Assembly (NCBI GenBank): GCA_022792415.1
Contig: JAAWAY010000094.1
Coordinates: 1 to 12,353, forward strand
Reading direction: 5' to 3'
Origin: Eggerthellaceae bacterium
Lineage (GTDB): Bacteria > Actinomycetota > Coriobacteriia > Coriobacteriales > Eggerthellaceae
Length of the DNA stretch: 12,353 bases
Each line of letters opens with the position of its first letter. The first letter of the stretch is position 1. The notes beneath the pieces were generated by a model, which was given only the letters and a program-made list of their open reading frames with translations, was not told where the DNA came from and did no database searches. Below, one piece after another: positions 1-12,353 of this stretch. Made by a program: the position numbers and the translations under genes.

Positions 1-1
1 C

Positions 2-1402
2 TCGCGCATGAGCCAGGGCGAGCGCTACGACCAGTGGGACTTTATCCGCAGCGGCGCCGCGCGCGTGGTGGTGGGCGCCCGCAGCGCGCTGTTTACCCCG
101 CTGGCCGACGTGGGCCTCGTCGTCATCGACGAGGAGCACGAGGGCTCCTACAAGCAGGACTCCGCCCCCCGCTACCAGGCGCGCGACGTGGCCGAGTGGA
201 TGATGCGCCGGTCGGGCGGCGCGCTCGTGCTGGGCTCGGCCACGCCGTCGGTCGAGGCGCTGCACGCCGCCGCCACCCGCGACGCGTGGACCCAGGTGCG
301 CCTGCCCGAGCGCGCCAACGGCCGGCCGCTGCCGCAGGTGGAGGTCGTCGACATGGCCGCCGAGTTCAAGGGCGGGTCGCGCGCCATGTTCTCGGGACGG
401 CTCACCCGCGCGCTGGGCGAGGAGCTCTCGCAGGGCCGCAAGGCGGTGCTGCTGCTCAACCAGCGCGGGTTCGCCAAGTTCCTGCTGTGCCGCGACTGCG
501 GCTTCGTGCCCGAGTGCCCGCACTGCGCCACGTCGCTGGCCTACCACGACTCCGACCGCACGCTGCGCTGCCACCACTGCGACTACCGCGTGGCCGCCCC
601 CCCGACGTGCCCTGAGTGCGGCAGCCCCTACCTCAAGAAGTTCGGCGCGGGCACCCAGCGGGTGGAGGCCGAGCTGCGCGCGCTCCTGGACGGGATGCCC
701 GGCGTGGGCCCGGGCGTGCCCGTCATCCGCATGGACGCCGACACCACGCGCGGCAAGGGCGCCCACCAGCGCCTGCTCGAGGAGTTCGCCGCCGCGGACG
801 CCGCCGTGCTGCTGGGCACGCAGATGATCGCCAAGGGCCTCGACTTCGACGACGTGACGCTCGTGGGCGTCATCAACGCCGACACGCAGCTGCACCTGCC
901 CGACTACCGCGCAGGCGAGCGCACGTTCGACCTGATCGAGCAGGTGGCCGGCCGCGCGGGCCGCGCCGAGCTGCCCGGGCGCGTGCTCGTGCAGACCTAC
1001 GAGGCCGACGCCGTGGCCATCCGCGCCGCGGCCGCCTACGACCGCGCGCTGTTCCTGCGCGCCGAGCTGCCCAAGCGCCGCGCGCTGGGCTACCCGCCCT
1101 ACGTGGCCCTGGCCAACGTGCTGGCTTGGGGCCCCGACGAGGGCGAGGTGGCGCGCGTGGCGACCGACCTGCAGCGCCAGCTGGAGGCGCTCGCGCGTGA
1201 CCACGGCGGCCCCGACTGGCAGGTGCTCCCGGCCACGCCCTGCGCGCTCGGCAAGCTGCGCAACGCCTACCGCTGGCACGTGGTGGTCAAGGCCCCGCCC
1301 GGCGCCGACATCCCCGGCGTCCTGACGCGCCTGTTCCGCGCGCGCAAGGCCGACGCCGCGGTGAACGTGGCCGTCGACGTCGACCCGGTCGACCTGCTGT
1401 AG
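2..1402 (+). CDS. priA: Primosomal protein N-prime (PriA replication-restart helicase), 3' portion. The gene runs off the left edge; the M at 8 is internal.
   Basis: In-frame continuation from the window edge. DEEH (DExH) helicase motif II (VVIDEEHEG). Canonical PriA Cys-rich zinc-binding region (CRDCGFVPECPHCATSLAYHDSDRTLRCHHCDY...CPECGS). Helicase C-terminal region and PriA C-terminal domain. High-GC codon usage. TAG stop at 1400-1402. Confidence 0.9.
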   Translation, partial: SRMSQGERYDQWDFIRSGAARVVVGARSALFTPLADVGLVVIDEEHEGSYKQDSAPRYQARDVAEWMMRRSGGALVLGSATPSVEALHAAATRDAWTQVRLPERANGRPLPQVEVVDMAAEFKGGSRAMFSGRLTRALGEELSQGRKAVLLLNQRGFAKFLLCRDCGFVPECPHCATSLAYHDSDRTLRCHHCDYRVAAPPTCPECGSPYLKKFGAGTQRVEAELRALLDGMPGVGPGVPVIRMDADTTRGKGAHQRLLEEFAAADAAVLLGTQMIAKGLDFDDVTLVGVINADTQLHLPDYRAGERTFDLIEQVAGRAGRAELPGRVLVQTYEADAVAIRAAAAYDRALFLRAELPKRRALGYPPYVALANVLAWGPDEGEVARVATDLQRQLEALARDHGGPDWQVLPATPCALGKLRNAYRWHVVVKAPPGADIPGVLTRLFRARKADAAVNVAVDVDPVDLL

Positions 1403-1454
1403 CCCGCCGCCGCCTGCGGGGCCCGCGCGCCGCGCGGAGCGCCCCGGCAACGCG

Positions 1455-1460
1455 TATAAT
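1455..1460 (+). promoter_or_regulatory. Perfect TATAAT -10 hexamer in the priA-downstream intergenic region. Possible promoter for the 1540 gene.
   Basis: gcgTATAATcag seen directly. No convincing -35 17 bp upstream (the region is GC-rich), so the support is weak. Confidence 0.25.
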
Positions 1461-1539
1461 CAGGGGAAACAAGCGCAAGCCGGCCAGAGGGGCCGCGCCC
1501 GGGCCGTCGGGCCCGGCAGGCCGAGGGGAAGGAGGGGCC

Positions 1540-2622
1540 GTGTCGACCAGCAGCCGCCGGTGGCGGTGGGCCTCCGCCCGCGCCCTCGTCTCGTCGCTCA
1601 CGCCGGCCGCCGCGGGCCTGGCGGCCCTCTCGGTGGCGCTCGTCGCGCTAACGGCCGGCGCCTACGGCCTGGCCGTCCCGGCCCTGGCCGGGCAGAGCGC
1701 CCTCGTGCTGGGCCCCGTCACCGCTGCGCCGTTTCCCCACGTGGACCGCGCCGACGGCCTGGCGGCCACGGGTGGCGCGCCGGGCCTGGGCGAGGTCGCC
1801 CCGCGCGACGGGGCCGAGGGCGGCGCCGACGGCGCTGACGGGGCCGACCCCGCCGCGGCCGGCGCCGAGCCCGCCGGGGGAGCCGACTCCGCGGGCGCGC
1901 TGCCGCCCACGCTCGGCACCATCCTGCTCCCCACCGTCAGCGCCGGCGCGTCCGACGCGCAGGCGGTCGCCACGGGCGGCGGCTCGGGAGGCGTGGCATC
2001 CGGCGCGGCCGGGTCGGCTGGCTCGTCTGGCTCGGCGGGGTCGTCGGGGTCCTCGGGCGGCGCCGGCACGGCCGGATCGACGGGCGGATCCTCGGGCGGC
2101 AGCTCGTCATCGGGCGGGTCGTCGTCGGGGCCCGCGGAGGAGCCGCGGGGTGAGGCGGCCATCCAGCAGGCCTACGAGACCGAGCACAACGACGAGGTGA
2201 AGGCCCTGCTCACGCGCTACTACCAGCAGGTGCCCACCTACATGAACCGCGCCATCGAGGCATACAACGCCTTCCCTGCGCAGGCCAAGACGGCCTCGCT
2301 CTCGCAGCGCCAGGCCTACGCCGCGCAGGTGGAGTCCCAGATGTCGCAGGCCATCGGCCCGTGGAACCAGATGACGCTCGACATGCAGGGCAAGCGCTGC
2401 TCCCAGTACTACCGGGACAAGTACGCCGAGATCGACAAGCTCTACAGCGACGTGTACAAGGTGTACGAGGGGCTGCAGGAGGCGTGGGGCGTCAACCTGG
2501 GCTACGCCGACCCCGCCGGCCACGAGGCCGACTACCTCGCGCCCCTCAACGCGCGCCTGAGCGGCGGACGCCCGGCGGCGGTGGTCGACTACGAGCGCCG
2601 CCTGGCAGGGGCGCGCCCGTGA
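1540..2622 (+). CDS. Secreted or membrane-anchored hypothetical protein. It has an N-terminal signal/anchor, an Ala/Gly/Asp and Gly/Ser low-complexity linker, and a C-terminal ~170-aa helical domain of unknown function.
   Basis: GTG start at 1540 preceded by GGGGAAGGAGGGG (SD). Basic N-terminus (RRWRW) then a hydrophobic stretch. GC3-rich codon usage. The TGA stop at 2620-2622 overlaps the ATG of the next gene (TGATG). Confidence 0.75.
   Translation: MSTSSRRWRWASARALVSSLTPAAAGLAALSVALVALTAGAYGLAVPALAGQSALVLGPVTAAPFPHVDRADGLAATGGAPGLGEVAPRDGAEGGADGADGADPAAAGAEPAGGADSAGALPPTLGTILLPTVSAGASDAQAVATGGGSGGVASGAAGSAGSSGSAGSSGSSGGAGTAGSTGGSSGGSSSSGGSSSGPAEEPRGEAAIQQAYETEHNDEVKALLTRYYQQVPTYMNRAIEAYNAFPAQAKTASLSQRQAYAAQVESQMSQAIGPWNQMTLDMQGKRCSQYYRDKYAEIDKLYSDVYKVYEGLQEAWGVNLGYADPAGHEADYLAPLNARLSGGRPAAVVDYERRLAGARP
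1972..2131 (+). repeat. Degenerate tandem nucleotide repeats (ggctcg / tcgggcgg units) encoding the Gly/Ser-rich linker of the 1540-2622 protein.
   Basis: Directly visible repeated ggctcgtctggctcggcggggtcgtcggggtcctcgggcgg... units. Encodes GSAGSSGSAGSSGSSGGAGTAGSTGGSSGGSSSSGGSSSG. Confidence 0.5.
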
Positions 2623-4373
2623 TGGCGGCGATCGGGGAGGGGGCCCTCGCCGCGCCGGGCGCGGGGAGCCTGCGCCTCGTGCGCGTGGAGGGCTTCGAGG
2701 CGCCCGAGGTGCTGGCCCCGGGCGACGAGGACGCCTACCGGCGCCGCTTCTGCTCGCTGCTCATGGACGACGCCCGCTCCCGGCGGGGCGGCCTGGGCCA
2801 GGTGACCTGGGCCGTCAACGCGCGCGGCGAGGCCCTGGCCGTCAAGCGGCTCCTGCCCGCGGAGGGCGCCGCGGCGGGGTCGCGCGGGTGCCAGGAGGCG
2901 CTCGAGCGCGCCTTCGCGGAGGAATACGAGGGGCACCGGCGCGTGTCGGGCCTCAAGGGCTTCCCGCGCCTGTACGGCCGCGGCACGGTGGACGGCGCGC
3001 CCGCGCTCATCATGGAGTGGGTGGAGGGCGAGACGCTCGAGCACGCGGCGCGGGCGCTGGCCGTGGACGGCGAGGGGCGCCTGTCGCCCCTGACGGCGGC
3101 GCGCCTATCCCGTGACCTGTTCGAGCTGCTGGCGCGCATGGACCTGGTGGAGGGCGGGTTCTCGCACCGGGACGTGACGCCGGCCAACGTCATGGTGTGC
3201 ACCACGCTTCAGCCCTTGGCGGCGCAGGTGGAGGAGGGCGTGTTCGACCTGCGGCTGGTCGACTTCGGCTCGGCGGCCGTGGGGGAGCGCCGGGCCACGT
3301 CGCTCACCGAGGCGTGGGGCGCGCCCCGCGGCGCGACGCCCGAGTACGCCCCGCCCGAGATGCTCACCGAGGACGTGGCCGAGGCCGTGGCGGCCCGCGC
3401 GGGCGCGGCCGTGGACGTGTACGCCGCCGCCGGCGTCGCGCAGCGGCTGCTGACAGGGCGCCCGCCCTTCGACCTGGCCTCCGACGTCCGCTCGCCCTAC
3501 CGCTGCAAGACCGAGGACGTGCCCGCGCCGCTGACCTGCGCGCACGAGGCCGCGACCGACCTGGGGGCGGTGCTGGCGGGCGAGCCCGAGGTGGCCGTGG
3601 CGCTCAGCCACGCCGTCGCCGACGCGGGCGGAGCGCCGGGGCCCGACCGCGCCCGGGAGGCGCTCTGCGCGGTGGACGCGCAGCTGGCGGGCCTGGTGGG
3701 CCCGTGCTTGGCTCCCAAGCCGAAGGACCGCCCCTCCGCCGCGGCGGTGCGCGACGGCCTGACCGCCTTCTGCCGGCAGTACGCCCCCAACCTGGGGCGC
3801 GCCCTGCGCGGCGAGGCGCTCGACCCGGCGGTGCTGGGCGAGGGCGCCACCCGCGTCGCGGACCGCTCGCGCCGTGCCGCCGCCGTGCTGCGGGGCGTCG
3901 CCCGCGCGGCGTGCGGGCTGGTGTGGGCGGCGGTGCTGGCCTCGGCTGCGCTGCTCGCCGACGGCGCGCGCGCCACGGTGGCCACGGGCGCGGGCCCCGA
4001 AGACGTCCTGGTGCCCGGCTGGGCGGTGGCGCTGCTGCTGGCCGCGCCGACGCTGGCGGCGTACGCCGCGCGGGGCCGCAACGGTGACCGTGGATGGGGC
4101 CTCGCCGCGGGGAGCGCCGCCCTGGTCGGGGCGTCGCTTCTGGTCATGGGCGCCGGCGCGGTGGTCGACCTGGCGTCGGGCGAGGTGGCGGCTGCCCTGG
4201 CAGCAGCCCTGGCCGCCTGCGCCGCCGCGGCGTGGTGTCCTATGGCGATCGGCTACGCGCTCTCGCCGCGCCGCCGACGCGCCCGCGCCGGGCGCAGGGC
4301 CGCGCGCGACGGCCTGCCGGCGGGGGAGGACGACGCGCAGGACGGCGCCGAGCCCCTGGGGCTGGCGTCGTAG
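2622..4373 (+). CDS. Hanks-type (PknB-like) Ser/Thr protein kinase-family protein with a C-terminal ~4-helix transmembrane domain. No PASTA or extracellular sensor domain. Atypical catalytic loop HRDVTPAN.
   Basis: ATG at 2622 overlaps the upstream stop (translational coupling); the ORF-track M at 2361 is an in-frame extension across the upstream gene. Kinase subdomains are recognisable: RRGGLGQVTWAV (Gly loop, compare PknB GFGGMSEVH), ALAVKRL (VAIK Lys), EEYE (alphaC Glu), IMEWVEGETL (hinge), HRDVTPANVMV (catalytic loop, with Thr in place of the conserved Lys), DFGSA (DFG), PEYAPPEM (APE), DVYAAAGV...LTGRPPF. The C-terminal third is strongly hydrophobic (multiple predicted TM helices). Confidence 0.8.
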   Translation: MAAIGEGALAAPGAGSLRLVRVEGFEAPEVLAPGDEDAYRRRFCSLLMDDARSRRGGLGQVTWAVNARGEALAVKRLLPAEGAAAGSRGCQEALERAFAEEYEGHRRVSGLKGFPRLYGRGTVDGAPALIMEWVEGETLEHAARALAVDGEGRLSPLTAARLSRDLFELLARMDLVEGGFSHRDVTPANVMVCTTLQPLAAQVEEGVFDLRLVDFGSAAVGERRATSLTEAWGAPRGATPEYAPPEMLTEDVAEAVAARAGAAVDVYAAAGVAQRLLTGRPPFDLASDVRSPYRCKTEDVPAPLTCAHEAATDLGAVLAGEPEVAVALSHAVADAGGAPGPDRAREALCAVDAQLAGLVGPCLAPKPKDRPSAAAVRDGLTAFCRQYAPNLGRALRGEALDPAVLGEGATRVADRSRRAAAVLRGVARAACGLVWAAVLASAALLADGARATVATGAGPEDVLVPGWAVALLLAAPTLAAYAARGRNGDRGWGLAAGSAALVGASLLVMGAGAVVDLASGEVAAALAAALAACAAAAWCPMAIGYALSPRRRRARAGRRAARDGLPAGEDDAQDGAEPLGLAS

Positions 4374-4467
4374 GGCGGGATGCGGACGATTATCGAATCA
4401 AAGCCTTGACCAGGCATTTGCGGCGATTAGCAAGCTATTCGCCGCATGATATGCGGTGAATAAGAAA

Positions 4468-4499
4468 GGGGGCGCGGCCCGAGATCGGGCCGCGCCCCC
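4468..4499 (-). terminator. Intrinsic terminator. A perfect 13-bp GC stem (GGGGGCGCGGCCC / GGGCCGCGCCCCC) with a 6-nt loop, followed on the minus strand by a U-rich tract (CUUUCUUAUU). Possibly bidirectional.
   Basis: Perfect inverted repeat seen directly. The T-run is only on the minus-strand 3' side (plus 4456-4467 = ...ataagaaa). It would end minus-strand transcripts coming from the island operon or gene remnant. It may also stop the plus-strand kinase operon. Confidence 0.6.
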
Positions 4500-4526
4500 T
4501 CTGCGCGTCGGGTACGCGGGCTCCCG

Positions 4527-4668
4527 CTAGGCGCGGGGGACGACCAGGCGCGTCCGGTTCCAGACGCCCTCGTCGTTCACGTAGTAGCGTCCGATCCACT
4601 TGTCGGTGGCCATGGCGCCCGAGTCCTCGAAGTATTACCAGTGGTCACCGGTGCGCAGTTGGGCGGAA
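4527..4668 (-). pseudogene. 3'-terminal remnant of a cell-wall-binding-repeat (CW_binding_1 / choline-binding-type) protein gene. It has an in-frame TAA at 4635-4637, and its 5' part is replaced by low-GC DNA.
   Basis: Minus-strand translation ...ISAQLRTGDHW*YFEDSGAMATDKWIGRYYVNDEGVWNRTRLVVPRA* ends at TAG (4527-4529). Two tandem units match the G-x-M-A-T-G/D-W...YY...G-x-W repeat logic of clostridial/streptococcal cell-wall-binding repeats. GC-rich, host-like. The ORF has no start and an internal stop. Confidence 0.5.
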
Positions 4669-4695
4669 ATCTGATTTCAAATCCAAACGCGTTCG

Positions 4696-5196
4696 CTAGA
4701 TGCGAAACAAGGATCGAATAGCAGAGCCTAGATGAAGGACGGAGCTTATTGTATAAAGGTCATCAGCAGTGAGAGTGTTATCGGAATCGCCATCATCTGG
4801 TTTTTCCTCATCCGGTTCGTTTTCGGGCACAATAGCAGGATTTTCGATCGTCTCTGTTGTCCCATCCATATATTGTATTTCCACTTTTTTCAATTGTGCC
4901 GATGCAATTGTTCCGTTATACCAAAGATGCTCAAAATGATACGACTCGTATGCACCGGGCTCAATCGGGCCTACGCCTTGGGCAAGTTTTATTGGGGAGT
5001 TGCTATTTCTTTCACCGACGATGTCACCCACAGAATTGATGGCCTGTAAGGTGAACTTAATATACTTTACTGTTTTGTCGGTATCGTTTTGAAGACGGAT
5101 TCGGACGCCAGCCCCACCAGCGCTATCCACACCGCTAATGAAGCAATCATTGTAATCTTTATATCCAACTCGCACCGACGAAATTATTATTCCCAT
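4696..5196 (-). CDS. Hypothetical small protein (166 aa), predicted beta-rich with an acidic C-terminal segment. Last gene of the low-GC operon.
   Basis: ATG at 5196..5194 with SD GGAGAGG 7 nt upstream. The ORF-track start at 5202 is a TTG two codons earlier. Low-GC codon usage matches the neighbouring island genes. No recognisable motif. Confidence 0.65.
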   Translation of the reverse strand: MGIIISSVRVGYKDYNDCFISGVDSAGGAGVRIRLQNDTDKTVKYIKFTLQAINSVGDIVGERNSNSPIKLAQGVGPIEPGAYESYHFEHLWYNGTIASAQLKKVEIQYMDGTTETIENPAIVPENEPDEEKPDDGDSDNTLTADDLYTISSVLHLGSAIRSLFRI

Positions 5197-5240
5197 TTTC
5201 AATCCTCTCCATCAAGGTTTCTTCAATGCTAGTATTTCGG

Positions 5241-6179
5241 TTATTCTCCACATGCCATCTTGTTTTTCACCTCTCTAATCATGTGCTTTTTGCTTGCTAT
5301 TTCCTCGTCAGTTAGCCGTGGTGTTTCAACGTATGCGCCCCATTTGTTGCGGACGAGATCCATTGAATTTCTTTCAAGCAACTCGCTAATCATGGTTATC
5401 ACCAACTGATAAACCTCAGATTTTGATTCCTGGTGCGTTTCGACGAGATCGGCAACTTTGATTAACACCTTGGTGCAGTTATCCGTTTCTTCTTCTAATT
5501 CCCAGAAGGCTGACCGAGTTTTGCTCATGTCGTAATCGCGCACTATTTCCGAGGCAACGTCTCTCATGGCTGAACAAACGATGGTTGTGGCTTTCCCAAA
5601 CACCTTTTGTTGACTAACGACAACGCCGGCCGAAGCCTCGTATTTCTTTATCGCCGAAGAGAAAGAATCGATGCCAGCGGAAAAGATGTCCGTGAAGTAT
5701 TCGTTTGTGAGCATTGAAACGTTTGCGCAACCCAAGGTCATCAGCCGGATTGCCAGTTCCTCGAGATATGATTCAATTGTTTTCGCCGCTGTTCTTTTTT
5801 CTGATTCGAAAGGTAAAGATTTGAGCGCCTGGATGAAACACGAAATAGACTCTTCAATACGAAGATTTTTCAGTGTCATCAGTTGGCCTATAGCCCGGCC
5901 TTTAAGTACATATACATCAAACCCCTGAGGTTCTTCCTCAATGGCTTTGTTGCAATGCGCTATCGCCAGGCTCCAATCGCTGGCATTGTAAGAGTCTTGA
6001 GCGAGCTCAAGGCGAAGATTTGCAGAATGAGCAAAACCGTCTTTTAGGCTACCCCCCCCCCTGGTGCTATTCTGCTCAAAAGACAGGTCATGCTCGACGC
6101 CGCAGCATTCGCAAACGGCGATGTTTCCCTCGCCCGTTTTTAGCCGACCTCCGCATATGTTGCATACGAGTGTTGCCAT
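5241..6179 (-). CDS. Zinc-ribbon plus TPR-like helical protein (312 aa), hypothetical.
   Basis: N-terminal CNICGG...CECCG (CxxC-x15-CxxC zinc ribbon). A TPR-like unit (SDWSLAIAHCNKAIEEEPQGFDVYVLKGRAIGQL). ATG at 6179..6177, 3 nt after the stop of the upstream gene (TGAGCCATG). Low GC. Confidence 0.7.
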   Translation of the reverse strand: MATLVCNICGGRLKTGEGNIAVCECCGVEHDLSFEQNSTRGGGSLKDGFAHSANLRLELAQDSYNASDWSLAIAHCNKAIEEEPQGFDVYVLKGRAIGQLMTLKNLRIEESISCFIQALKSLPFESEKRTAAKTIESYLEELAIRLMTLGCANVSMLTNEYFTDIFSAGIDSFSSAIKKYEASAGVVVSQQKVFGKATTIVCSAMRDVASEIVRDYDMSKTRSAFWELEEETDNCTKVLIKVADLVETHQESKSEVYQLVITMISELLERNSMDLVRNKWGAYVETPRLTDEEIASKKHMIREVKNKMACGE

Positions 6180-6182
6180 GGC

Positions 6183-6743
6183 TCACTCACCAGATTCCCG
6201 TTGGAGAGAGGCGCAGCACGTTTCGCGGCGGCATTTCTTGGCGTTGTCGTTGTCAATGGGGATAATGCTGTCAGCGTCGTAATAGTTGTCTCTTACGATG
6301 GCCCCAATCTGGTACACGAGGTCCACGAGATCAGCCGATTCCTCCGCTAGTTTTTGGAATTGAGAATCAACATCATCGTATTGATCCAAAGTTACCAATT
6401 GATGCACGAGCTTATTTCGTTCCTTGCACCACCTTTTCACAGAGCGAAGCGTATCGGGCTTCACGTCCTTGACCAGGGGATACTCTCTTTTGGATAAACG
6501 TATAAGGCACTCGATCTTGGTTGTGATGCCTGTCGGCCTCGCATTTTCTGCTCGCGGCGCTTTCGGGCAGCCCTGCGCTATTTTTGAAATAATGCGATCG
6601 AAGCGGTTTTCGAAGCATGCATAGGCATACCAGCACGTCTCAACGTAAGACCCTCGCTCTATTGCGTTGTTGATGCGCTGAAGAACGTCATCGTGCATTG
6701 CTGCCATTTCAAGTCGCTTTTCATAGGGTTCCAAGGGTTCCAT
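6183..6743 (-). CDS. Hypothetical all-alpha protein (186 aa) with a HEPN-like R-N-x3-H motif (KERNKLVHQ). Candidate HEPN-superfamily RNase or Abi-like effector.
   Basis: ATG 6743..6741 lies 3 nt after the stop of the upstream gene (TAGGCCATG). Rx4H (R109-N-K-L-V-H114, nt 6402-6419) sits in a predicted helical context about 110 aa into the protein, as in HEPN domains. No other family signature recognised. The functional call is inference. Confidence 0.65.
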   Translation of the reverse strand: MEPLEPYEKRLEMAAMHDDVLQRINNAIERGSYVETCWYAYACFENRFDRIISKIAQGCPKAPRAENARPTGITTKIECLIRLSKREYPLVKDVKPDTLRSVKRWCKERNKLVHQLVTLDQYDDVDSQFQKLAEESADLVDLVYQIGAIVRDNYYDADSIIPIDNDNAKKCRRETCCASLQRESGE

Positions 6744-6746
6744 GGC

Positions 6747-7421
6747 CTACTTCTTTCCTGCCTTGATCATGATGTTGCGTTTGTCGAGAAGGCGAGATAT
6801 TGACTGGAGGGTCTCCAGATCAACCCTTCCGCTTTCCTTAACCTGTTCGACATAGGCGTTGATTTGACTCTCTATCTCCGACGTCGACTCGAGGCTCCTC
6901 GAATTGCTGAACCGGGCCGTGTCTATCAACTCGTTCAAGGCTTTCTGCTCTTCGCCTCTTACTTCGAAATCAGCCTCGATGCCGCGTAGGCTCATAAGGA
7001 GGTCGCGGGAGAAGGCCGTGGACCTTTCAGCTGCATTCTCGACTTGGCTGGCGTAGCTCATGCCCTTTTCTGCGCCGATTAACGCGATTGAACTCATGGC
7101 CAGGAGAATGACGCCAGTAACAATCGATATGGTTGTATCTCCGGGTAGCAAGAGGGCGAGCGCTCCACCCACAGCGAGCTGGATAAGCAGGAAGAGCGTG
7201 GGTAGAACAAGTTTCGGGTACGTTTGGAACAGCCCTGAGACGTCGGCTTGCGTTCTGCTGATGCCTGCGAAATAAAGAAGAACTCCTTGCGCCAGGCCAA
7301 ACAAGAGCGCGATCCACGAGGTAGCGGTCTGCGGCGCAAGCAACGAGATAAGGAGCGCATACGCTGCGTAGATGATTGCAAGGATGCCGAGGCAGGCTAC
7401 CCTCATTGTTGGTTTCTTCAT
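6747..7421 (-). CDS. Integral membrane protein (224 aa). About 4 N-terminal TM helices, then a cytoplasmic coiled-coil/helical domain. Possibly a YdjH-like partner of the SPFH protein.
   Basis: ATG 7421..7419 preceded by AAGGAGGGG (SD). Starts 3 nt after the stop of the SPFH gene (TAGGCTATG). Long hydrophobic segments (ILAIIYAAYALLISLLA, WIALLFGLAQGVLLYFAG, LVLPTLFLLIQLAVGGALALLL, IVTGVILLAMSSIALIGA) followed by a charged heptad-like C-terminus. Confidence 0.75.
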   Translation of the reverse strand: MKKPTMRVACLGILAIIYAAYALLISLLAPQTATSWIALLFGLAQGVLLYFAGISRTQADVSGLFQTYPKLVLPTLFLLIQLAVGGALALLLPGDTTISIVTGVILLAMSSIALIGAEKGMSYASQVENAAERSTAFSRDLLMSLRGIEADFEVRGEEQKALNELIDTARFSNSRSLESTSEIESQINAYVEQVKESGRVDLETLQSISRLLDKRNIMIKAGKK

Positions 7422-7424
7422 AGC

Positions 7425-8561
7425 CTATCCCCTCCTTGTGCCACACTCGGGGCAGAATTTCTCCGTTGAGCCGAAGGGCCTGCCGCACTCCGGGCAGAAT
7501 TTTGCGTTTTGCTGACCTGTATCTGCTGGTTGCCCGTTGCCGTCGACAACGGAGACGGAAGGTGGGTCGACCAAGGGGTCGGCTGTCCCGATTGAGCTCG
7601 CCATCGCACCGCTTACCAGGTTCCCCACTGGGCCGCCGACGCCACTCACCATTCCGAGCCCGATTCCCATGTTTGCGAACTCGCCAACGCCCTCATTGGC
7701 AGCCACCTTTTCGGCAACATCGAAACCGCGCTCCTGCTGATAGGTGTAGCCCTCGATGCGACGCTTGTCGGCGGTGGCGCCAGCCTCGATCACCGTGCGC
7801 TTGGCCTCTGTCTCCTGATTTATGATGCCGACTTGCTGCTCGATCTGCGCCTCGCGTACATCGGCGTACTGGCGGAAATACAGCTCGCGGAACTTCTCGT
7901 AGATAGGATCTCCCTCGGGTCTCATGACCGTCGTCACGAGAAACTGCGTGAGCTCAAGGCCGTATTCCTCGAAGTCGGATGCTAGCCGACCTTTAACGTC
8001 GTCGGAAAACTCCTCCAAGTGCGCGTCAAGCTCGAAAATATTAAGCGCTTTATTCTGTACAGCCTGTACAAGAGCGGTTTTTACACGTGTCTGCAAGAAA
8101 GCCTTGAAATAGCTAATGAGATTGTCTTGTGACAGCACCGCCTCTGTTCCGACAATCTTTACAAGTAGTTTTTTAGCTTCGCGTACGGCGAGCGCCATTT
8201 CGCCCGAGGCGCCAATCGACAGGGGAAACCCGAACTCGGGCTCCATGTACTGTACTTTCGAGTTGGTCCCCCAGGGGATGCCCATCTGCTCGGTAAGGTT
8301 TACAAAGTAAACCTCGGCATGAAAGGGGGATATGCCGTTTGACGGCAGGCTTACAACCTTGTTGATGAGTGGGAGGTTCTGGGTCTCCAGCGTATGGCGC
8401 CCAGGGCCAAATAGATCGAGTGCTTGACCGTTGAGGAAAAACATTGCCTCCTGCGACTCGTGGACAATGAGTTGCGAGGCGGTATTGAAATCCTCCGCGG
8501 GATGTTTCCAGATGAAGGTGCGGTTGTCGCCCTCATACTTAATGACGTCGATAATTCCCAT
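7425..8561 (-). CDS. SPFH/Band-7 (flotillin-like) protein of the YdjI / Band_7_1 type with a C-terminal double CxxC zinc ribbon (378 aa).
   Basis: Recalled similarity to B. subtilis YdjI: ...AEVYFVNLTEQMGIPWGTNSKV versus AEVLFVNTKEFTVRWGTKQ; a Gly/Met-rich low-complexity segment; C-terminal FCPECG...FCPECG versus YdjI NFCPNCG...NFCPNCG. Start taken at ATG 8561..8559 (MGIIDVIKYEG...) with SD GGAGGGG 9 nt upstream. The ORF-track extension to 8762 has no SD, is Cys-rich junk, and covers the predicted promoter. Confidence 0.85.
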   Translation of the reverse strand: MGIIDVIKYEGDNRTFIWKHPAEDFNTASQLIVHESQEAMFFLNGQALDLFGPGRHTLETQNLPLINKVVSLPSNGISPFHAEVYFVNLTEQMGIPWGTNSKVQYMEPEFGFPLSIGASGEMALAVREAKKLLVKIVGTEAVLSQDNLISYFKAFLQTRVKTALVQAVQNKALNIFELDAHLEEFSDDVKGRLASDFEEYGLELTQFLVTTVMRPEGDPIYEKFRELYFRQYADVREAQIEQQVGIINQETEAKRTVIEAGATADKRRIEGYTYQQERGFDVAEKVAANEGVGEFANMGIGLGMVSGVGGPVGNLVSGAMASSIGTADPLVDPPSVSVVDGNGQPADTGQQNAKFCPECGRPFGSTEKFCPECGTRRG

Positions 8562-8658
8562 TCCAGCATGCCCCTCCATACAAGACAGACAGTCCAGAGC
8601 CAAGAAGCGACCTCCTGTCCTCGAGAAGGGAAAGAGGCTGCAATCCGTTCCACTGGCT

Positions 8659-8687
8659 TTGAATGATATGTGGGGTGAGAGGTAACT
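8659..8687 (+). promoter_or_regulatory. Candidate plus-strand promoter for the FHA-A gene. TTGAAT-17-GTAACT immediately abuts the palindromic operator.
   Basis: Hexamers seen directly. The -10 is weak. Position relative to the palindrome (8687-8700) is consistent with repressor control. Confidence 0.3.
8663..8668 (-). promoter_or_regulatory. Candidate -10 (TATCAT) of the minus-strand island operon promoter. The palindrome lies in its -35 region.
   Basis: Minus strand reads TTGTTGCGCAACAAGTTACCTCTCACCCCACATATCATTC. TATCAT matches TATAAT at 5 of 6. This gives a roughly 95-nt leader to ATG 8561. Confidence 0.3.
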
Positions 8688-8700
8688 TGTTGCGCAACAA
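8687..8700. promoter_or_regulatory. Perfect 14-bp palindrome TTGTTGCGCAACAA in the divergent intergenic region (operator-like). The core TGTTGCGCAACA recurs at 9881-9892.
   Basis: Exact dyad symmetry seen directly. An identical 12-bp core recurs 1.2 kb away. It sits between the divergent candidate promoters. Confidence 0.55.
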
Positions 8701-8869
8701 AGTCGAGCGATCAGGGGTGTTTGAGCGGAGGGTCGGCTTCGCCTCGCGCAAACGGCAACCAATCTCGTCTATGCTATGCTCATCAGCGAAAACAACGGGG
8801 CAGCAGCTTGCTCTCGCATCGACACACCCGGCGCGGGCGCCGCGCTCAGGGCAAGAAGGAGGCCGCCGG

Positions 8870-9838
8870 ATGGCAGCGACCGATACCACCCCGGGCATGG
8901 TGCTCTTCTCAACCCTCAAGCGCGACGCGTCCCTCAGCTACAAGGACACGGCCTCGCTCGTGCTGTCGGGCCGGCCCCTGCCGGACGGTCGCAGCCCGCT
9001 CAGCCGCATCGATGACCGCACGTGGCTGTCGCGCTACGTGGTGAACGCGCCGGCCGGCACCGCCCAGCCCCACTTCTTCAACGATTTCTCGCTGTCGGCC
9101 CTGCGCATCACGGCGCGCCTGAAGTCGAAGCGCGGCCGTGGGATGTCGGGTGAGGACGTGCTGGCGCTCGTGACGGGCGACGCGGGCCGCGCCATGGAGG
9201 ACGCGCTGGCCGCGTGCCACCAGGACGTCGGACCCTACCGTAACCAGATGGCGCGCGTGATGGGCGACGCGGGGCTCACGGCCGACGAGCGGGCCGAGGC
9301 TGCCATGGTGCTGTTCGTGGCGGCCGGCTGCACGGCCGACGTGCGCCGCGCGGTGGAGGCGACGTCCGACTTCATGCGCAGCGCGCACGGCGGCGGCCTG
9401 TCGACGCCGGCGTTCGCGCTCATGCCGCGCGAGGGGACGCCCCGGCGCGGCGAGGCGCCCGCTCCGTCACTGGGCCTGCTGCGCGTGGTGGACGGCTATG
9501 TGTGCGGGGCGCCCCACTGGGTGGCGCCCGATGGCGAGGGCGCGGAGATTGGCGCGCTCTCCTTCGCCGACGGGGCGGTGACCGACGTGGGCGAGGACGT
9601 GTCGGGGCGCCACGCGCGCCTGTGGAACGAGGACGGTGCGTGGCTGGTGGAGGGCCTGGGGTCCACCAACGGCACGGTGCTCGTGTCCGCCGCGGACGGG
9701 TCACGGGTGGTGGTAGAGCCGCCGGCGCGCGAGCGGGCCGGCTTCGAGCCGGCGCCCGTGGAGGTGCGCCCGGGCGACCAGCTGCTGCTGGGCGGCACCA
9801 CCGCGTTCCTGGTGCTGGAAGGATCACCTGACGCATAG
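8870..9838 (+). CDS. FHA-domain protein, paralog A (322 aa). An N-terminal ~220-aa domain of unknown function plus a C-terminal forkhead-associated (phosphothreonine-binding) domain. High GC.
   Basis: ATG 8870 with SD AAGAAGGAGG 7 nt upstream; the ORF-track M at 8663 is an upstream in-frame extension. FHA signature VSGRHARLWNEDGAWLVEGLGSTNGTVLV (S-x-x-H, NG-T, then hydrophobic beta strands, ...PGDQLLLGGTTAFLV). About 45% identical, and the same length, as the 10618-11586 product. Confidence 0.85.
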   Translation: MAATDTTPGMVLFSTLKRDASLSYKDTASLVLSGRPLPDGRSPLSRIDDRTWLSRYVVNAPAGTAQPHFFNDFSLSALRITARLKSKRGRGMSGEDVLALVTGDAGRAMEDALAACHQDVGPYRNQMARVMGDAGLTADERAEAAMVLFVAAGCTADVRRAVEATSDFMRSAHGGGLSTPAFALMPREGTPRRGEAPAPSLGLLRVVDGYVCGAPHWVAPDGEGAEIGALSFADGAVTDVGEDVSGRHARLWNEDGAWLVEGLGSTNGTVLVSAADGSRVVVEPPARERAGFEPAPVEVRPGDQLLLGGTTAFLVLEGSPDA

Positions 9839-9880
9839 CCCGTCTTGCGGGGCCTTCTCCATACGTTCATCACCAAATAC

Positions 9881-9892
9881 TGTTGCGCAACA
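9881..9892. promoter_or_regulatory. Second copy of the palindrome TGTTGCGCAACA, 43 nt after the FHA-A stop and 64 nt before the 9956 ATG.
   Basis: Exact 12-bp perfect palindrome identical to the core at 8688-8699. Flanking sequence is not conserved, so it is a discrete site rather than a long duplication. Confidence 0.55.
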
Positions 9893-9910
9893 CCGCCTGC
9901 GCAGGCGGTG
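9891..9910. other. Perfect 20-bp palindrome CACCGCCTGCGCAGGCGGTG (hairpin-capable), overlapping the operator core by 2 nt and followed by AAAAA.
   Basis: Seen directly. Could be a U-tract-less terminator for FHA-A, a second operator, or an RNA structural element. Confidence 0.4.
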
Positions 9911-9955
9911 AAAAACTGGGCTTCCTATCCATGACCGGAAGGAAGCGTCCCAACC

Positions 9956-10621
9956 ATGGTCCAGTGCAACGGCAACCTCATCGTCTTCGCCTGCGAAGAT
10001 GCTCTGATGCACGCCATTCTTCTGGAAATGGGCTCCAACCTTGCGAAAGCCGAGCGTCGACGGTCAAGACACTATGTCAGTCCCGTTTCGGCTATCAGGA
10101 TCGAGGGAACGGAGTCGACGCAGGAGCTGCTGGGCAAGATAGTGCCGCTTTACCTGAAGGACCCTGTCGCTGCCCTTAATCCAAACTCACGCACGAGTGC
10201 CGCCGATGGAGAGCCGGCTCCTCCTGATCTGAAGGTCATAGACGGGTACACGGTGCTATCCCTTGCTTTCGCCACTGACGGAGGCGTGGTTGATTCCGAT
10301 GTGACACAGTTCGTTCGAGCCCTGCCCTCCGAGCAGTGCGGCATTGCAGCTTGCCACTGGTTTGATGGACTTGAGAGACGTCTGCTTATTCAGGGCAACC
10401 TGCGTGACGCCGGCCCGTTTCGCTGCGGCGGTCCAGCAGGTGGAATCGATTCGCTTGAGTTGTTCTTCGGACAGGATATGTTCGCGACCCCCGAGCAGTG
10501 GGAGCGTTTCCTGCACAGTAATAGTTCCGCAGGGGGAGATGTCACCTCGCCGCACGATGACGGGCCGCAGGGCGTGGCTAATCGAAGACTGGCAGCTATG
10601 ATCGGGGATGCTGGACTGTGA
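9956..10621 (+). CDS. Hypothetical cytoplasmic protein (221 aa), translationally coupled to FHA paralog B. Medium GC.
   Basis: ATG 9956 with a GGAAGGAAG purine-rich stretch upstream. The TGA stop (10619-10621) overlaps the GTG start of the next gene (GTGA). No recognisable motif. The C-terminal ...RRLAAMIGDAGL resembles a segment (RNQMARVMGDAGL) of FHA-A. Confidence 0.65.
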   Translation: MVQCNGNLIVFACEDALMHAILLEMGSNLAKAERRRSRHYVSPVSAIRIEGTESTQELLGKIVPLYLKDPVAALNPNSRTSAADGEPAPPDLKVIDGYTVLSLAFATDGGVVDSDVTQFVRALPSEQCGIAACHWFDGLERRLLIQGNLRDAGPFRCGGPAGGIDSLELFFGQDMFATPEQWERFLHSNSSAGGDVTSPHDDGPQGVANRRLAAMIGDAGL

Positions 10622-11586
10622 CACTGCCCGAGGTCTCGCCTCGCGTGGTGCTGTTTGACACGATAAAGCGACTCGGAGGCGTCAGCTATAAGGAAACGGC
10701 GCGAATGCTTCTGTCTTCGCGACCGCTGATGGGAGGGCGCAGTCCCGCAGAGCGCCTTGAGAGCAGTCGCACGTGGCTGACGCGCGAGGTGGTGCATGCC
10801 GAAAACTTTGCAGGGCAGCCCGGTTTGTTCTGCGATTTTGAGGTGGGGGCGATGCGAGTGCTGGCGCGGCTCAAATCGACCAGGGCCGGGGGCCATGGTG
10901 GCGCTGCTTTAGTTCGCGAGCTCTGCGAGGGGCAGGCTGCGGCTGACATGCTGCAGGCCCTAGAGGCAACGGGACGAGGGGGACGCCTGTACCGAAACAT
11001 GCTCACGCGTCTCGTCCGCGCGAACGGCTTGGAGAACGACGAGCGTGCCGAGGTTGCCATGGTGCTGTTTGTGGCGGCGGGCTGCACAGGTGATGCGCGG
11101 ACGGCAGTTGCTGACGCCTTGAGGTTCTCGCACTCCGTTCATGGTGGCCGTATGGAAATGGGAGACGCTGAAGTCGCGGAAGACTCGAACGGGGTTTGTC
11201 TGGTTTCTCACGATGACAGCCCGCCCCTTCTTGGTCTTCTTCGCATGGTCGGTGACTACATTGCAGGCGGTCCCTACTGGGTGTCCCCGGAGCGCGACGG
11301 CGCCACGATCGGCATGCTCGCGCTCGGGTCGGAGGATATCGTCGACGTTGAGCCTGATGTGGCGAATCATCATGCCCGTGTGTGGTTTGACGGGTCATCG
11401 TGGTTCGTCGAGGACCTCAGGTCGGGTTCGGATGTGGCAGTGTTTCGTGATGACAATACATGCCATGAAGTAGCTTTTGGTGGAATCGCTCACTTAAGCC
11501 GTGGGGATGAGATCGTGCTCGGCCGAGGTACGCGATTCCACGTTGTATTCGGTCTTCCTGGTGTTGATCGGCCAGCTCCGCTTTAA
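10618..11586 (+). CDS. FHA-domain protein, paralog B (322 aa). Same architecture as 8870-9838 but in about 56% GC DNA.
   Basis: GTG start overlapping the upstream stop. Collinear gap-free N-terminal alignment with paralog A (VVLFDTIKR...SYKETARMLLSSRPLMGGRSP versus MVLFSTLKR...SYKDTASLVLSGRPLPDGRSP). Shared DERAEVAMVLFVAAGCTGD block. C-terminal FHA-like segment (NHHARVWFDGSSWFVEDLRSGSDVAVF). Confidence 0.85.
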   Translation: MTLPEVSPRVVLFDTIKRLGGVSYKETARMLLSSRPLMGGRSPAERLESSRTWLTREVVHAENFAGQPGLFCDFEVGAMRVLARLKSTRAGGHGGAALVRELCEGQAAADMLQALEATGRGGRLYRNMLTRLVRANGLENDERAEVAMVLFVAAGCTGDARTAVADALRFSHSVHGGRMEMGDAEVAEDSNGVCLVSHDDSPPLLGLLRMVGDYIAGGPYWVSPERDGATIGMLALGSEDIVDVEPDVANHHARVWFDGSSWFVEDLRSGSDVAVFRDDNTCHEVAFGGIAHLSRGDEIVLGRGTRFHVVFGLPGVDRPAPL

Positions 11587-11708
11587 GGGGGAGGCCCACT
11601 TTTTCAGTGATATGTGCTTCAGAAGCCGTCTCAACGGGGGCAGATGGCGGGAATCAGAGTACTTGCGCGTACGTGGGGCCCGGCTTTTGCAATGCCCTCG
11701 CGTGTCTC

Positions 11709-11737
11709 TTTACGCTGGTATTTCCTCTTGCTACAAT
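11709..11737 (+). promoter_or_regulatory. Candidate sigma70-type promoter TTTACG-17-TACAAT on the plus strand. It could drive a short antisense RNA across the 3' end of the small minus-strand ORF.
   Basis: Hexamers and 17-nt spacer seen directly. It lies downstream of the FHA-B stop and about 55 nt upstream of the 11793-11826 hairpin. Speculative. Confidence 0.25.
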
Positions 11738-11792
11738 GTGGTCAGCGGATGCCCGTGTTTGGTGATGCGGGCAACGCCGTTTTGTTTCTTTG

Positions 11793-11826
11793 GTGACCGC
11801 AGGCCTCAGCTAGCGCCTGCGGTCAC
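11793..11826. other. 12-bp-stem hairpin (GTGACCGCAGGC-N10-GCCTGCGGTCAC) overlapping the stop codon of the small minus-strand ORF. U-rich on its plus-strand 5' side; UUU follows the stem on the plus strand.
   Basis: Perfect 12-bp inverted repeat seen directly. Not a canonical terminator in either orientation. Possibly a shared 3' stabiliser or terminator of convergent transcripts. Confidence 0.45.
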
Positions 11827-11935
11827 GCTGCGTTTCGGGGCGCTCACCCCGTGCTATGGACACGGCCTTGACCACCGCCGTCGCCAATCCCACCACCGCA
11901 GTGGCAAGCGCAACAACTTGAACAGCCAATTCCAT
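11810..11935 (-). CDS. Unannotated 41-aa small hydrophobic peptide MELAVQVVALATAVVGLATAVVKAVSIARGERPETQRDRRR. One TM helix plus a charged tail. Type I toxin-like or small membrane protein.
   Basis: ATG 11935..11933 preceded by a perfect SD AGGAGG (plus 11946-11951) at 10-nt spacing. Clean ORF to TAG (11812..11810). Missed by the ORF track, whose cutoff is 60 aa. Candidate promoter upstream (see 12017-12045). Confidence 0.45.
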   Translation of the reverse strand: MELAVQVVALATAVVGLATAVVKAVSIARGERPETQRDRRR

Positions 11936-12016
11936 GGGCAAATCACCTCCTTTCGTAAAAGAAGGCGCTGCCAGCACACGGGGCTTACTCCGCTGACCGC
12001 TTCCGATTTTATCATG

Positions 12017-12045
12017 ATTATAGGAACATACGTTCTATATTTAAA
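12017..12045 (-). promoter_or_regulatory. Minus-strand promoter TTTAAA-17-TATAAT for the small ORF. A GAAC-N4-GTTC (Cheo/LexA-type) box at 12024-12035 sits in the spacer next to the -10.
   Basis: Minus strand reads TTTAAATATAGAACGTATGTTCCTATAATCATG. Perfect -10. GAACGTATGTTC matches the Gram-positive SOS-box consensus GAAC-RNRY-GTTC in both orientations. AT-rich island in otherwise GC-rich DNA. Confidence 0.35.
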
Positions 12046-12282
12046 TATACTCTATTTGATTATAAGCGGGCCGCTCAATGACTACATTTGTTGCCGGAAC
12101 GCATGAAGCATGAAAGCTGAGGATAATCGAACTTCTATCAGCTGAAAAAAACGAAGCAGAGCTTGCTCATCTCTTGGCGGAGAGGGACGGATTGAGGAAT
12201 TCGTTTGCTGGCGGGCGAGAATCGGACTGTCGAAGAGTGGTCCGAGCATAAGATCGACGAGATGTTCAACAGGAAATTAGGG

Positions 12283-12353
12283 ATGTGGAGTGGCGGCTTT
12301 GAGCGGATCTTGGGAAAGGTTGATGTGGCCTTCTCCCTCCCTTGCCCCCCACA
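12283..12353 (+). CDS. Possible 5' end of a gene running off the right edge (MWSGGFERILGKVDVAFSLPCPP...).
   Basis: ATG 12283 with AGGAAA 6 nt upstream. The open frame continues to the window end. Only 23 codons are visible, and an alternative in-frame ATG exists at 12262. Confidence 0.25.
   Translation, partial: MWSGGFERILGKVDVAFSLPCPP

Follow-up and report, generated by a model that had tools for sequence, protein, structure and literature searches.

Does a short block of DNA near the end of an Eggerthellaceae contig (JAAWAY010000094.1, positions 1 to 12,353; this whole stretch of 12,353 nt is called the window) encode a small toxin together with the antisense RNA that keeps it silent? The block, called the module below, is a conserved unit of about 260-350 bp (window 11650-12045). 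An earlier note, made from the window alone, had proposed a type I toxin-antitoxin-like arrangement: a minus-strand open reading frame (ORF) for a 41-aa hydrophobic peptide, a LexA-type box in its promoter and a convergent antisense RNA. Comparison of the module across about 20 distinct related loci (given L numbers where they have to be told apart) supports this proposal in part. The ORF, the convergent promoter and a recurring dyad stand; the details of the sense promoter, of the terminator and of the likeness to fst are corrected here. With a probability of about 0.6, the module would be a chromosomal type I toxin-antitoxin-like gene pair, linked to the SOS response, from a previously undescribed family specific to Coriobacteriia.

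To our knowledge, type I systems have been described almost entirely from Proteobacteria and Firmicutes, and no report of one in Coriobacteriia or other Actinomycetota was found in the searchable literature. The module family is new; its kind, type I toxin-antitoxin-like, is already known. It gains some interest from the phylum, from the SOS link in a Gram-positive host and from the association with BREX.

A conserved module and its ORF

The DNA-level match between the window and the other loci is confined to 11650-11998, at 77-95% identity. What the loci have in common is the 260-350-bp module, not its neighbourhood. ORF, Shine-Dalgarno sequence (SD), both promoters and the hairpins follow each other in the same order and with the same spacing in the approximately 20 loci. 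Taken singly and within one window these features are weak (the promoter scan of the window gave two promoter-like sites, exactly those of the earlier note, vs 0.5 expected); their conservation lifts them beyond chance.

The ORF runs on the minus strand from the ATG at 11935 to the TAG at 11810. It encodes the peptide MELAVQVVALATAVVGLATAVVKAVSIARGERPETQRDRRR, for which a single hydrophobic helix (residues 2-29) and a disordered, basic tail are predicted. Its ribosome-binding site, AGGAGG (11951-11946, minus strand), lies within AAAGGAGGTGATTTGCCC, 10 nt before the ATG. The AGGAGG-N10-ATG start reported by the earlier note is present in the sequence, and start and SD are conserved across loci. 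The ORF itself, whose conservation in related strains that note had made decisive, is found in relatives. A word-indexed search gave seven close relatives of 40-41 aa (56-90% identity; called N-terminal extensions ignored), one of which bears the name 'hypothetical protein [uncultured Adlercreutzia sp.]'. Six species genomes, including those of Adlercreutzia caecimuris B7 and Eggerthellaceae bacterium 24-137, each have a single copy of the invariant 22-mer AAGGAGGTGATTTGCCCATGGA, which is also present on 8 metagenome contigs; viral contigs, plasmids and phages gave no match to it. A profile search of 1.84 billion cluster representatives recovered at least 35 peptide clusters, nearly all of 39-44 aa and of one layout: M-[DE]-L-x-I-Q, a hydrophobic Ala/Val/Gly-rich helix, 'ARG' and a K/R-rich tail. 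Three paralogues, annotated as hypothetical proteins, are found in Collinsella sp. zg1085; no further cluster is named. The module is distributed in Adlercreutzia, other Eggerthellaceae and Collinsella, and the family shows how genes of 40 codons and their antisense partners are missed by annotation.

Known profiles do not cover the peptide. Pfam and NCBIfam profiles match it at chance level only, far below their cut-offs in significance (Anophelin, E = 0.2; TrbK, E = 0.03), and in these two collections no above-threshold match was obtained to Fst/Ldr, Hok, TisB, TxpA, BsrG or other curated toxin families. The Rfam scan of window 11600-12100 gave no match.

The conserved start, the codon-position pattern and the in-frame indels argue that the ORF is coding. 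The 14 distinct DNA versions all keep the identical start and all have the stop in a hairpin loop. Variable columns number 9 of 32 at codon position 2, vs 22 at position 1 and 20 at position 3. Indels in the coding sequence (CDS) are all of 3 nt and in frame; those in the untranslated regions (UTRs) are of 1-2 nt. The ratio dN/dS is mostly 0.1-0.5 inside the second subfamily.

The best 19-residue Kyte-Doolittle mean of the peptide is 2.24 (TisB, 2.50; Fst, 2.24), and hydropathy values of 1.9-2.3 are in the TisB/Fst range. The AlphaFold2 model has a helix over residues 2-29, followed by a disordered tail; the mean pLDDT is 87-95 per 10-residue block over residues 1-30. Judged by these predictions, the peptide has the features of a type I toxin: it is shorter than about 60 aa, hydrophobic and predicted to be targeted to the membrane. 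The single transmembrane helix of the earlier note is thus borne out in prediction; its Arg-rich tail has another origin in part, which is set out with the antisense terminators below.

Two predicted RNAs and two promoters

The mean pairwise identity varies strongly along the module: 90% in the 5' UTR, 74% in the CDS, 62% in the tail and hairpin, 38% in an A-rich linker, 83% in a 3' element and 74% in the antisense -10; beyond the module it is 30%. The 5' UTR (about 63 nt, 11936..11999, minus strand) is the most conserved part. Since it and the 3' element exceed the CDS in identity, the non-coding parts are more constrained than the peptide.

The sense RNA is predicted to start at GGUCAGCGG and to be at least 260 nt long. 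Two pairings would lock it. The first is an anti-SD hairpin (11944..11967, minus strand), in which CGCCUUCUUU (11967-11958) pairs with AAAGGAGGUG (11953-11944) and sequesters the SD. This hairpin appears in both the minimum free energy and the centroid structures and is nearly invariant in Eggerthellaceae; in Collinsella it is made by the co-varied pair CUUCCCUU/AAGGGAGG. The second is a closing helix between the two ends of the RNA. Its 5' arm is GGUCAGCGGA (11989..11998, minus strand) and its 3' arm is UCCGCUGACC (11740..11749, minus strand; overlapping the antisense RNA start). Together the arms form a perfect 10-bp inverted repeat, 11998-11989 with 11749-11740, 239 nt apart. The closing helix is 98.8% paired over 16 variants, and three of its pairs are compensated in subfamily 3 (GGUCGACGGC/GCCGUCGGCC). 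One pair alternates between U.G, U-A and C-G; as U.G is acceptable on the peptide strand only, the pairing is a feature of the mRNA and not a DNA repeat. Two further 5' UTR stretches, CCCGUGU and GGCAGCGCC, are complementary to the 3' element.

Statistical support comes from the alignment as a whole. The proposed structure is 92.6% paired, vs 37-46% when the partners are slid by 1-3 columns, and the observed covariation was reached in 0 of 500 shuffles. The fold of the read-through mRNA has z = -5.2. The predicted structure has the fold-back of hok, a pairing between the two ends of the mRNA.

The other strand carries the predicted antisense gene. Its promoter, TTTACG (11709-11714)-17-TACAAT (11732-11737) (11709..11737, plus strand), has 9 of 12 matches and a TG before the -10. 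The earlier note had pointed out this promoter, which is confirmed in the sequence and turns out to be kept as TTTACG-16/17-TAnAAT in all subfamilies and even in Collinsella. The -10 is conserved as TA(C/G/A/T)AAT, the third position alone varying. Two terminator-like hairpins follow. The first is a stem-loop with a U-rich tract (11745..11792, plus strand; stem-loop 11745-11780, U-rich 11780-11792), whose T-rich run is kept in most loci. Read on the peptide strand, the DNA of 11745..11792 is the conserved 3' UTR element, the one with 83% identity, above the CDS. The second is the hairpin at the ORF stop, with a perfect 12-bp stem (arms 11793-11804 and 11815-11826, overall 11793..11826) and the stop codon in its loop. 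Nine of its 12 pairs are changed on both sides among loci, and at least five different stem sequences are found.

The earlier note had described this 12-bp hairpin correctly and had missed the stem-loop before it. The stop hairpin is probably the second terminator of the antisense RNA. On the peptide strand no U tract follows it, and the mRNA must therefore read through. The antisense RNA is predicted to start at about 11744 and to measure either about 50 nt (end near 11792) or about 85-95 nt (end near 11830-11840). The predicted RNA has two strong hairpins with UUUUGUUUCUUUG between them (fold z = -3.4). Its complementarity to the 3' UTR element is perfect and, in the long form, extends to the last ORF codons. 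The conserved sense -10 described below and the 10-bp inverted repeat are likewise absent from the earlier note.

The copy of Collinsella (L034) has a peptide 44% identical to that of the window and lies in a genome of about 50% GC. Every module element is kept there with a different sequence. The sense -10 is TGTTACAAT. The 5'-3' helix is of 14 bp, GGUAUCAACGCAGC with GCUGCCGUUGGUGCC, with two G.U pairs and one bulge; the fold of the mRNA has z = -7.1. The stop-codon hairpin is present, as is an antisense promoter, TTTACG-16-TATAAT. On the antisense strand, the first stem-loop is followed by U8 and the stop hairpin by U5CU3, giving two canonical intrinsic terminators; on the peptide strand, A8 comes after the stop hairpin. 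With U tracts on the antisense strand alone, it is the antisense RNA that the stop hairpin would terminate; the mRNA must run on to the 3' arm.

This layout bears on the basic tail. The tail codons (window 11810-11845; L034 10095-10126) are the reverse complement of an antisense terminator, whose stem encodes the Arg/Gly/Ala codons and whose U tract encodes the Lys/Asn/Glu codons. The composition of the tail is therefore tied to the strength of the terminator. Among copies, the tail reads QRDRRR, KGGHRN, ADRKH, AGRE and others, rewritten by changes in the stop-hairpin stem. The K/N/R codons of the L034 tail being such a reverse complement, the Arg-rich toxin tail is partly a by-product: it is in part dictated by the terminator of the opposite strand.

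Two irregular copies were seen. In L015, the complete module is followed about 260 bp downstream by a second, partial copy (2543-2710, mid-CDS to antisense promoter) in the same orientation, which suggests recombination between modules. The L009/L021 variant (e.g. L009 8560-8610) has no recognisable -10 at the conserved position, its 5' UTR has diverged so that the 5'-3' pairing is weakened, and its peptide contains TTWGKRPKT; although the ORF is intact, it may be a decaying copy.

The sense promoter given by the earlier note, TTTAAA (12045-12040)-17-TATAAT (12022-12017) (12017..12045, minus strand), is present with 10 of 12 matches, but it is specific to the window and does not align with the -10 of other loci. 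The family-conserved extended -10 is TGATAAAAT (12006..12014, minus strand), which aligns with TGnTA(C/T/G)AAT in most other loci; the window-specific TATAAT lies 11 nt upstream of it. Homology between loci starts 7 nt downstream of the extended -10 (TGnTAnAAT), at GGTCAGCGG, as expected of a transcript start, and sense transcription is predicted to begin at about 11999. Sense and antisense -10 are both conserved as TAnAAT, with position 3 alone free.

The LexA/Cheo-type dyad GAACGTATGTTC (12024..12035, minus strand), a putative SOS operator, is the sole GAAC-N4-GTTC site of the window. Taken alone it is not significant (0.2 expected by chance in the window; at least one in 39 of 200 shuffles). 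With TGATAAAAT as the conserved -10, the dyad occupies the -35 position, 11-12 nt upstream of it; it also occupies the spacer of TTTAAA/TATAAT, in which the earlier note had seen it, and overlaps both promoters. Of 14 promoter variants with unrelated flanks, 10 have the dyad at this position, perfect or with one mismatch; where present it is 10-12 nt upstream of the -10 in most loci. Perfect forms (five variants): window, L015/L032, L017, L020, L026/L027. One mismatch (five more): L001/L016 (GTAC...), L009, L018/L019, L028. In 86 kb of related DNA, four of the five perfect dyads are at module promoters, vs about one expected. Upstream of the module in L016, the one closest to that of the window (95% identity), tandem LexA-like boxes, TCGAACATTTCTTC and AAGTACATTTGTTC, 22 nt apart, were noted at 131-164. 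No LexA-type dyad is found in L034; a perfect 16-bp palindrome, TTCGTTGTACAACGAA (9846-9861), lies about 55 nt upstream of its -10 and may be the site of another regulator.

GAAC-N4-GTTC is the core of the LexA consensus of Firmicutes and Actinobacteria, and uvrD and pcrA are classical LexA targets in Escherichia coli and Bacillus subtilis. A relaxed scan (at most one mismatch, AT-rich spacer; 111 kb) gave only two matches outside modules. One of them, the near-identical box GTACATTTGTTC (L001 19399-19410; a related Adlercreutzia metagenome-assembled genome), ends 35 nt before the ATG at which a pcrA/uvrD-type helicase gene starts, and overlaps a TTGATT-17-TATACT promoter at its -35. The 14-mer GTACATTTGTTCTT is common to this box and to the module box of the same genome. 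GTACATTTGTTC is a candidate SOS operator of Adlercreutzia, which supports, without proving, a role of the dyad as the LexA operator in this genus. No relevant paper on the LexA motif of Coriobacteriia or Eggerthella was found.

Proposed mechanism, genomic contexts and other explanations

According to the proposed mechanism, a promoter probably repressed by LexA through the -35 dyad would drive an mRNA of at least 260 nt for the 41-residue single-helix membrane peptide, the LexA-type operator gating transcription in many copies, not all. This mRNA would be translationally silent by a double lock: the SD held in the 10-bp anti-SD hairpin, and the 5'-3' closure, known also from hok (tac/fbi) and aapA1. 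In this closure, the leading 10 nt of the mRNA, and probably some 35 nt of its 5' UTR, would pair with the conserved 3' UTR element. The convergent extended -10 promoter would make a small RNA of about 50 or about 90 nt, ending at either of the tandem terminators. The small RNA would pair perfectly with the 3' UTR element and, in its long form, with the last ORF codons; if txpA/RatA and bsrG/SR4 are a guide, the resulting duplex would lead to decay of the mRNA or prevent its activation. The peptide would be made only under strong induction (DNA damage) or after loss of the antisense RNA. We infer the transcripts and their ends, LexA binding, the direction of antisense control, the membrane toxicity and the biological role from sequence comparison. 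In common gut bacteria (Adlercreutzia, Collinsella), a conserved SOS-linked module of this kind would be an entry to stress-induced dormancy and persistence.

Several points weigh against this mechanism or parts of it. The dyad is degenerate or absent in L022, L023, L025, L029-L033 and Collinsella; SOS control would therefore not extend to the whole family. About five loose dyad matches are expected by chance in the 111 kb scanned, and the dyad is read as a LexA box of Adlercreutzia from a single pcrA/uvrD site together with the general Gram-positive/actinobacterial consensus. The three compensatory closing-helix pairs come from a single lineage, plus the Collinsella comparison. Past the 3' arm, no mRNA terminator was found in the window. 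An antisense RNA bound to the 3' element would also set the 5' UTR free, and could in principle activate the mRNA instead of repressing it. Between subfamilies, dN/dS is 0.4-1.0, the exchanges being mainly hydrophobic for hydrophobic. Finally, the module is single-copy in most genomes and absent from plasmids and phages, where classic addiction modules often occur.

The LexA-type dyad in the promoter and a product that would be a single-helix membrane peptide of about 40 aa, encoded on the chromosome and mostly in single copy, could belong to an SOS-induced small membrane effector outside any toxin-antitoxin pair, e.g. a division-blocking checkpoint peptide such as SidA, DidA, YneA or SosA, with the antisense RNA for fine-tuning. 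This is unlikely. The dyad is missing in the copies with the most core-like context (L022, L023; between ABC binding-protein gene and ffh-ftsY) and in Collinsella, which has three paralogues; the context is variable and often a defence island; the module adjoins lexA in no locus seen; and it is type I toxins that characteristically combine an elaborate silencing of the mRNA with an antisense gene of their own.

A benign small membrane protein under sense/antisense control, e.g. a regulator or subunit of a membrane complex, without toxicity or addiction, is quite unlikely. It would fit the conservation of the ORF and of the RNA elements, nothing in which speaks directly to toxicity, and resemblance to type I toxins is frequent among small membrane proteins. 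Against it, no partner gene is conserved, the neighbours differing in every context, and the combination of SD sequestration, 5'-3' closure and convergent small RNA is typical of genes with a product that has to stay off.

The contexts themselves point to a further explanation. In L001-L008, L009-L012, L021, L026 and L032, the gene divergent from the peptide ORF encodes a 319-aa protein, which is the C-terminal part of BREX PglX/BrxX (residues ~885-1195 of 1205). The N-terminal part is a separate gene further on, of 856 aa in L001 and ending at profile position 869/1174 in L026. The pglX gene of BREX type 1 is thus split at one fixed point (~residue 870-885), with a separately started C-terminal gene, pglX-C. 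The regions concerned are: L001, 8892-13896; L021 (reoriented), 3773-7914; L026, 55-10704; L032, 5350-6309. Between the two parts of pglX lie a Shedu SduA nuclease gene (L001), a SIR2-like gene (L021) or three genes including one for a PDC-M26A-like protein (L026), and the module invariably adjoins pglX-C. No description of this split was found in the BREX literature searched.

Other copies have other neighbours. In A. caecimuris B7 and two relatives (L022, L023, L025) the module is flanked by an ABC binding-protein gene on one side and ffh-ftsY on the other; its neighbours in Collinsella are peptidase and glycosidase genes. Most contexts have a divergent gene upstream and a convergent one downstream, an arrangement that would shield a toxin gene from read-through transcription. 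A reading of the ORF as a leader peptide was rejected: the downstream gene is convergent in most contexts seen and there is usually no gene to control, L019, with a co-directional LMWPc gene downstream of the module, being an exception. A protein antitoxin was also rejected, as no second conserved ORF was noticed in the module alignments, in which antisense-frame ORFs were not systematically checked. Many metagenome contigs (L009-L014) stop 30-190 bp past the peptide ORF, as is expected if the DNA beyond differs between co-occurring strains (variable cargo).

The window shows traces of the same context. Next to the module and outside it lies a decayed relic of the 5' end of pglX-C (12078..12182, possibly to 12251, plus strand; MTTFVAGTHEA*KL..., with an in-frame TGA), recognised by DNA homology to L015 up to 12146, by alignment and by a weak translated match. 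With this relic beside it, the module seems to have come in along with part of a BREX locus. The window opens with a PriA fragment that shares 90% identity with its counterpart in Adlercreutzia faecimuris and 78-82% with those of other Adlercreutzia/Eggerthella; judging from these identities, the host is an Adlercreutzia (Eggerthellaceae, Coriobacteriia). The GC content is 72-83% up to ~4400 (priA, kinase gene) and falls sharply afterwards; over 4450-12353 it is 44-76%, mostly <63%, with a patch of 68-76% at 8800-10000. The sharp fall places the module in a mosaic, horizontally acquired island. This island encodes an SPFH/Band-7 protein, two FHA-domain proteins and five ORFs without a family match; a Ser/Thr kinase gene lies directly upstream of it, within the high-GC part. 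No homologues of the island proteins were found among the cargo of other loci, and window products of 322, 224, 41 and 55 aa have no exact database record. At the GC boundary (4459-4527) a weak Rfam match, BjrC68 (E = 0.075), was noted.

From these contexts it could be argued that the module is mainly an RNA/DNA device at the junction between defence cargo and pglX-C, an insulator (tandem terminators) with outward promoters in which the ORF is secondary. The module always lies between variable cargo and pglX-C in L001, L021, L026 and L032, a relic of pglX-C is beside it in the window, its non-coding parts are conserved above the CDS, and metagenome contigs break just past it. The ORF, however, is intact, with invariant SD and start, in contexts other than BREX (L022, L023 and L025 at ffh-ftsY; Collinsella between glycosidase and peptidase genes), and it has the codon-position and in-frame-indel signatures, which makes such a device very unlikely.

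The type I toxin-antitoxin-like reading can be combined with the repeated location of the module. Its presence in split pglX beside exchangeable defence genes suggests that it helps to stabilise or regulate defence islands. More specifically, and doubtfully, the module would be the constant border of a recombination hotspot that splits pglX: it would anchor the cargo by addiction, insulate transcription through its tandem terminators and couple the toxin, and possibly the downstream pglX-C/pglZ/brxL, to DNA damage or phage attack via the LexA-type operator. The hotspot cargo would then be Shedu, the SIR2-like gene and the three-gene candidate system, and in the window the FHA/SPFH/kinase island.

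A chance ORF or a repeat similar to a miniature inverted-repeat transposable element, suggested by the perfect 10-bp inverted repeat 239 nt apart, by the occurrence of a small unit in several contexts and by the frequency of chance 41-codon ORFs in GC-rich DNA, is highly improbable and the transposable-element form of it was rejected: each of six genomes has a single copy and viral, plasmid and phage collections have none, no target-site duplication was seen, both promoters are outside the repeat and homology extends past it, the U.G wobbles make sense only as RNA pairing on one strand, and the ORF is intact in 14 DNA variants and about 35 peptide clusters.

Comparison with known systems

The SOS-controlled inhibitors of division, SidA/DidA (Caulobacter), YneA (Bacillus) and SosA (Staphylococcus), are small membrane proteins under LexA control, as is proposed for the module peptide. 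They differ in having no dedicated antisense RNA and fixed loci, yneA and sosA adjoining lexA, whereas the module moves between contexts and some of its copies lack the dyad.

Among type I systems, tisB/istR-1 and dinQ/agrB of E. coli have in common with the module a single-helix membrane peptide and a LexA operator in the promoter (here putative and LexA-type). They also share a 5' UTR structure that keeps the primary mRNA inert and a constitutive small RNA that counters it (both predicted here). Their peptides have no sequence similarity to that of the module. The genes of IstR-1 and AgrB lie divergently or nearby, and these RNAs bind the 5' UTR; the module RNA is convergent and would cover the 3' UTR and the last codons. 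The module host moreover belongs to a Gram-positive actinobacterial class, and its dyad is of the GAAC-N4-GTTC type and absent from part of the family.

The arrangement fst/RNA II (par, Enterococcus pAD1), which the earlier note had taken as its model, shares with the module convergent transcription, a hairpin on both strands near the 3' end of the ORF and a hydrophobic peptide with a charged tail. The likeness goes no further. In par, direct repeats (DRa/DRb) make the 5' regions of the two RNAs complementary. No such direct repeats are found in the module, whose repeat is inverted (GGTCAGCGGA / TCCGCTGACC), and its two RNAs would therefore share nearly the same 5' sequence instead of complementing each other. 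The terminator of par is shared and bidirectional; in the module, U tracts follow the hairpins on the antisense strand only.

Closer counterparts are found for the two halves of the layout. In hok/sok and in aapA1/IsoA1 of Helicobacter, as predicted here, an element at the 3' terminus of the mRNA base-pairs with its very 5' end and closes the molecule, and the SD is sequestered too. Sok and IsoA1 pair with the 5' leader; the complementarity of the module antisense RNA is to the 3' side of the fold-back, and this RNA faces the 3' end. Neither aapA1 nor hok has sequence similarity to the module, the Pfam and NCBIfam searches gave no Hok match, and no overlapping mok-like leader ORF was seen. In txpA/RatA, bsrG/SR4, bsrE/SR5 and yonT/SR6 of B. 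subtilis, as in the module, convergent genes overlap at their 3' ends; the duplex of such systems triggers RNase III-dependent decay. These systems are on prophages or their remnants, are not known as SOS-boxed and have unrelated toxins, and the module differs from them in the two tandem terminators that precede the ORF on the antisense strand. We know of no 5'-3' closing helix described for them. On sequence grounds, the layout of the module resembles the fold-back of hok/aapA1 plus a 3' overlap of the txpA/RatA type, not fst/RNAII. It would thus be a natural RNA design in which a hok-like 5'-3' lock is joined with a 3' antisense RNA in the Gram-positive style.

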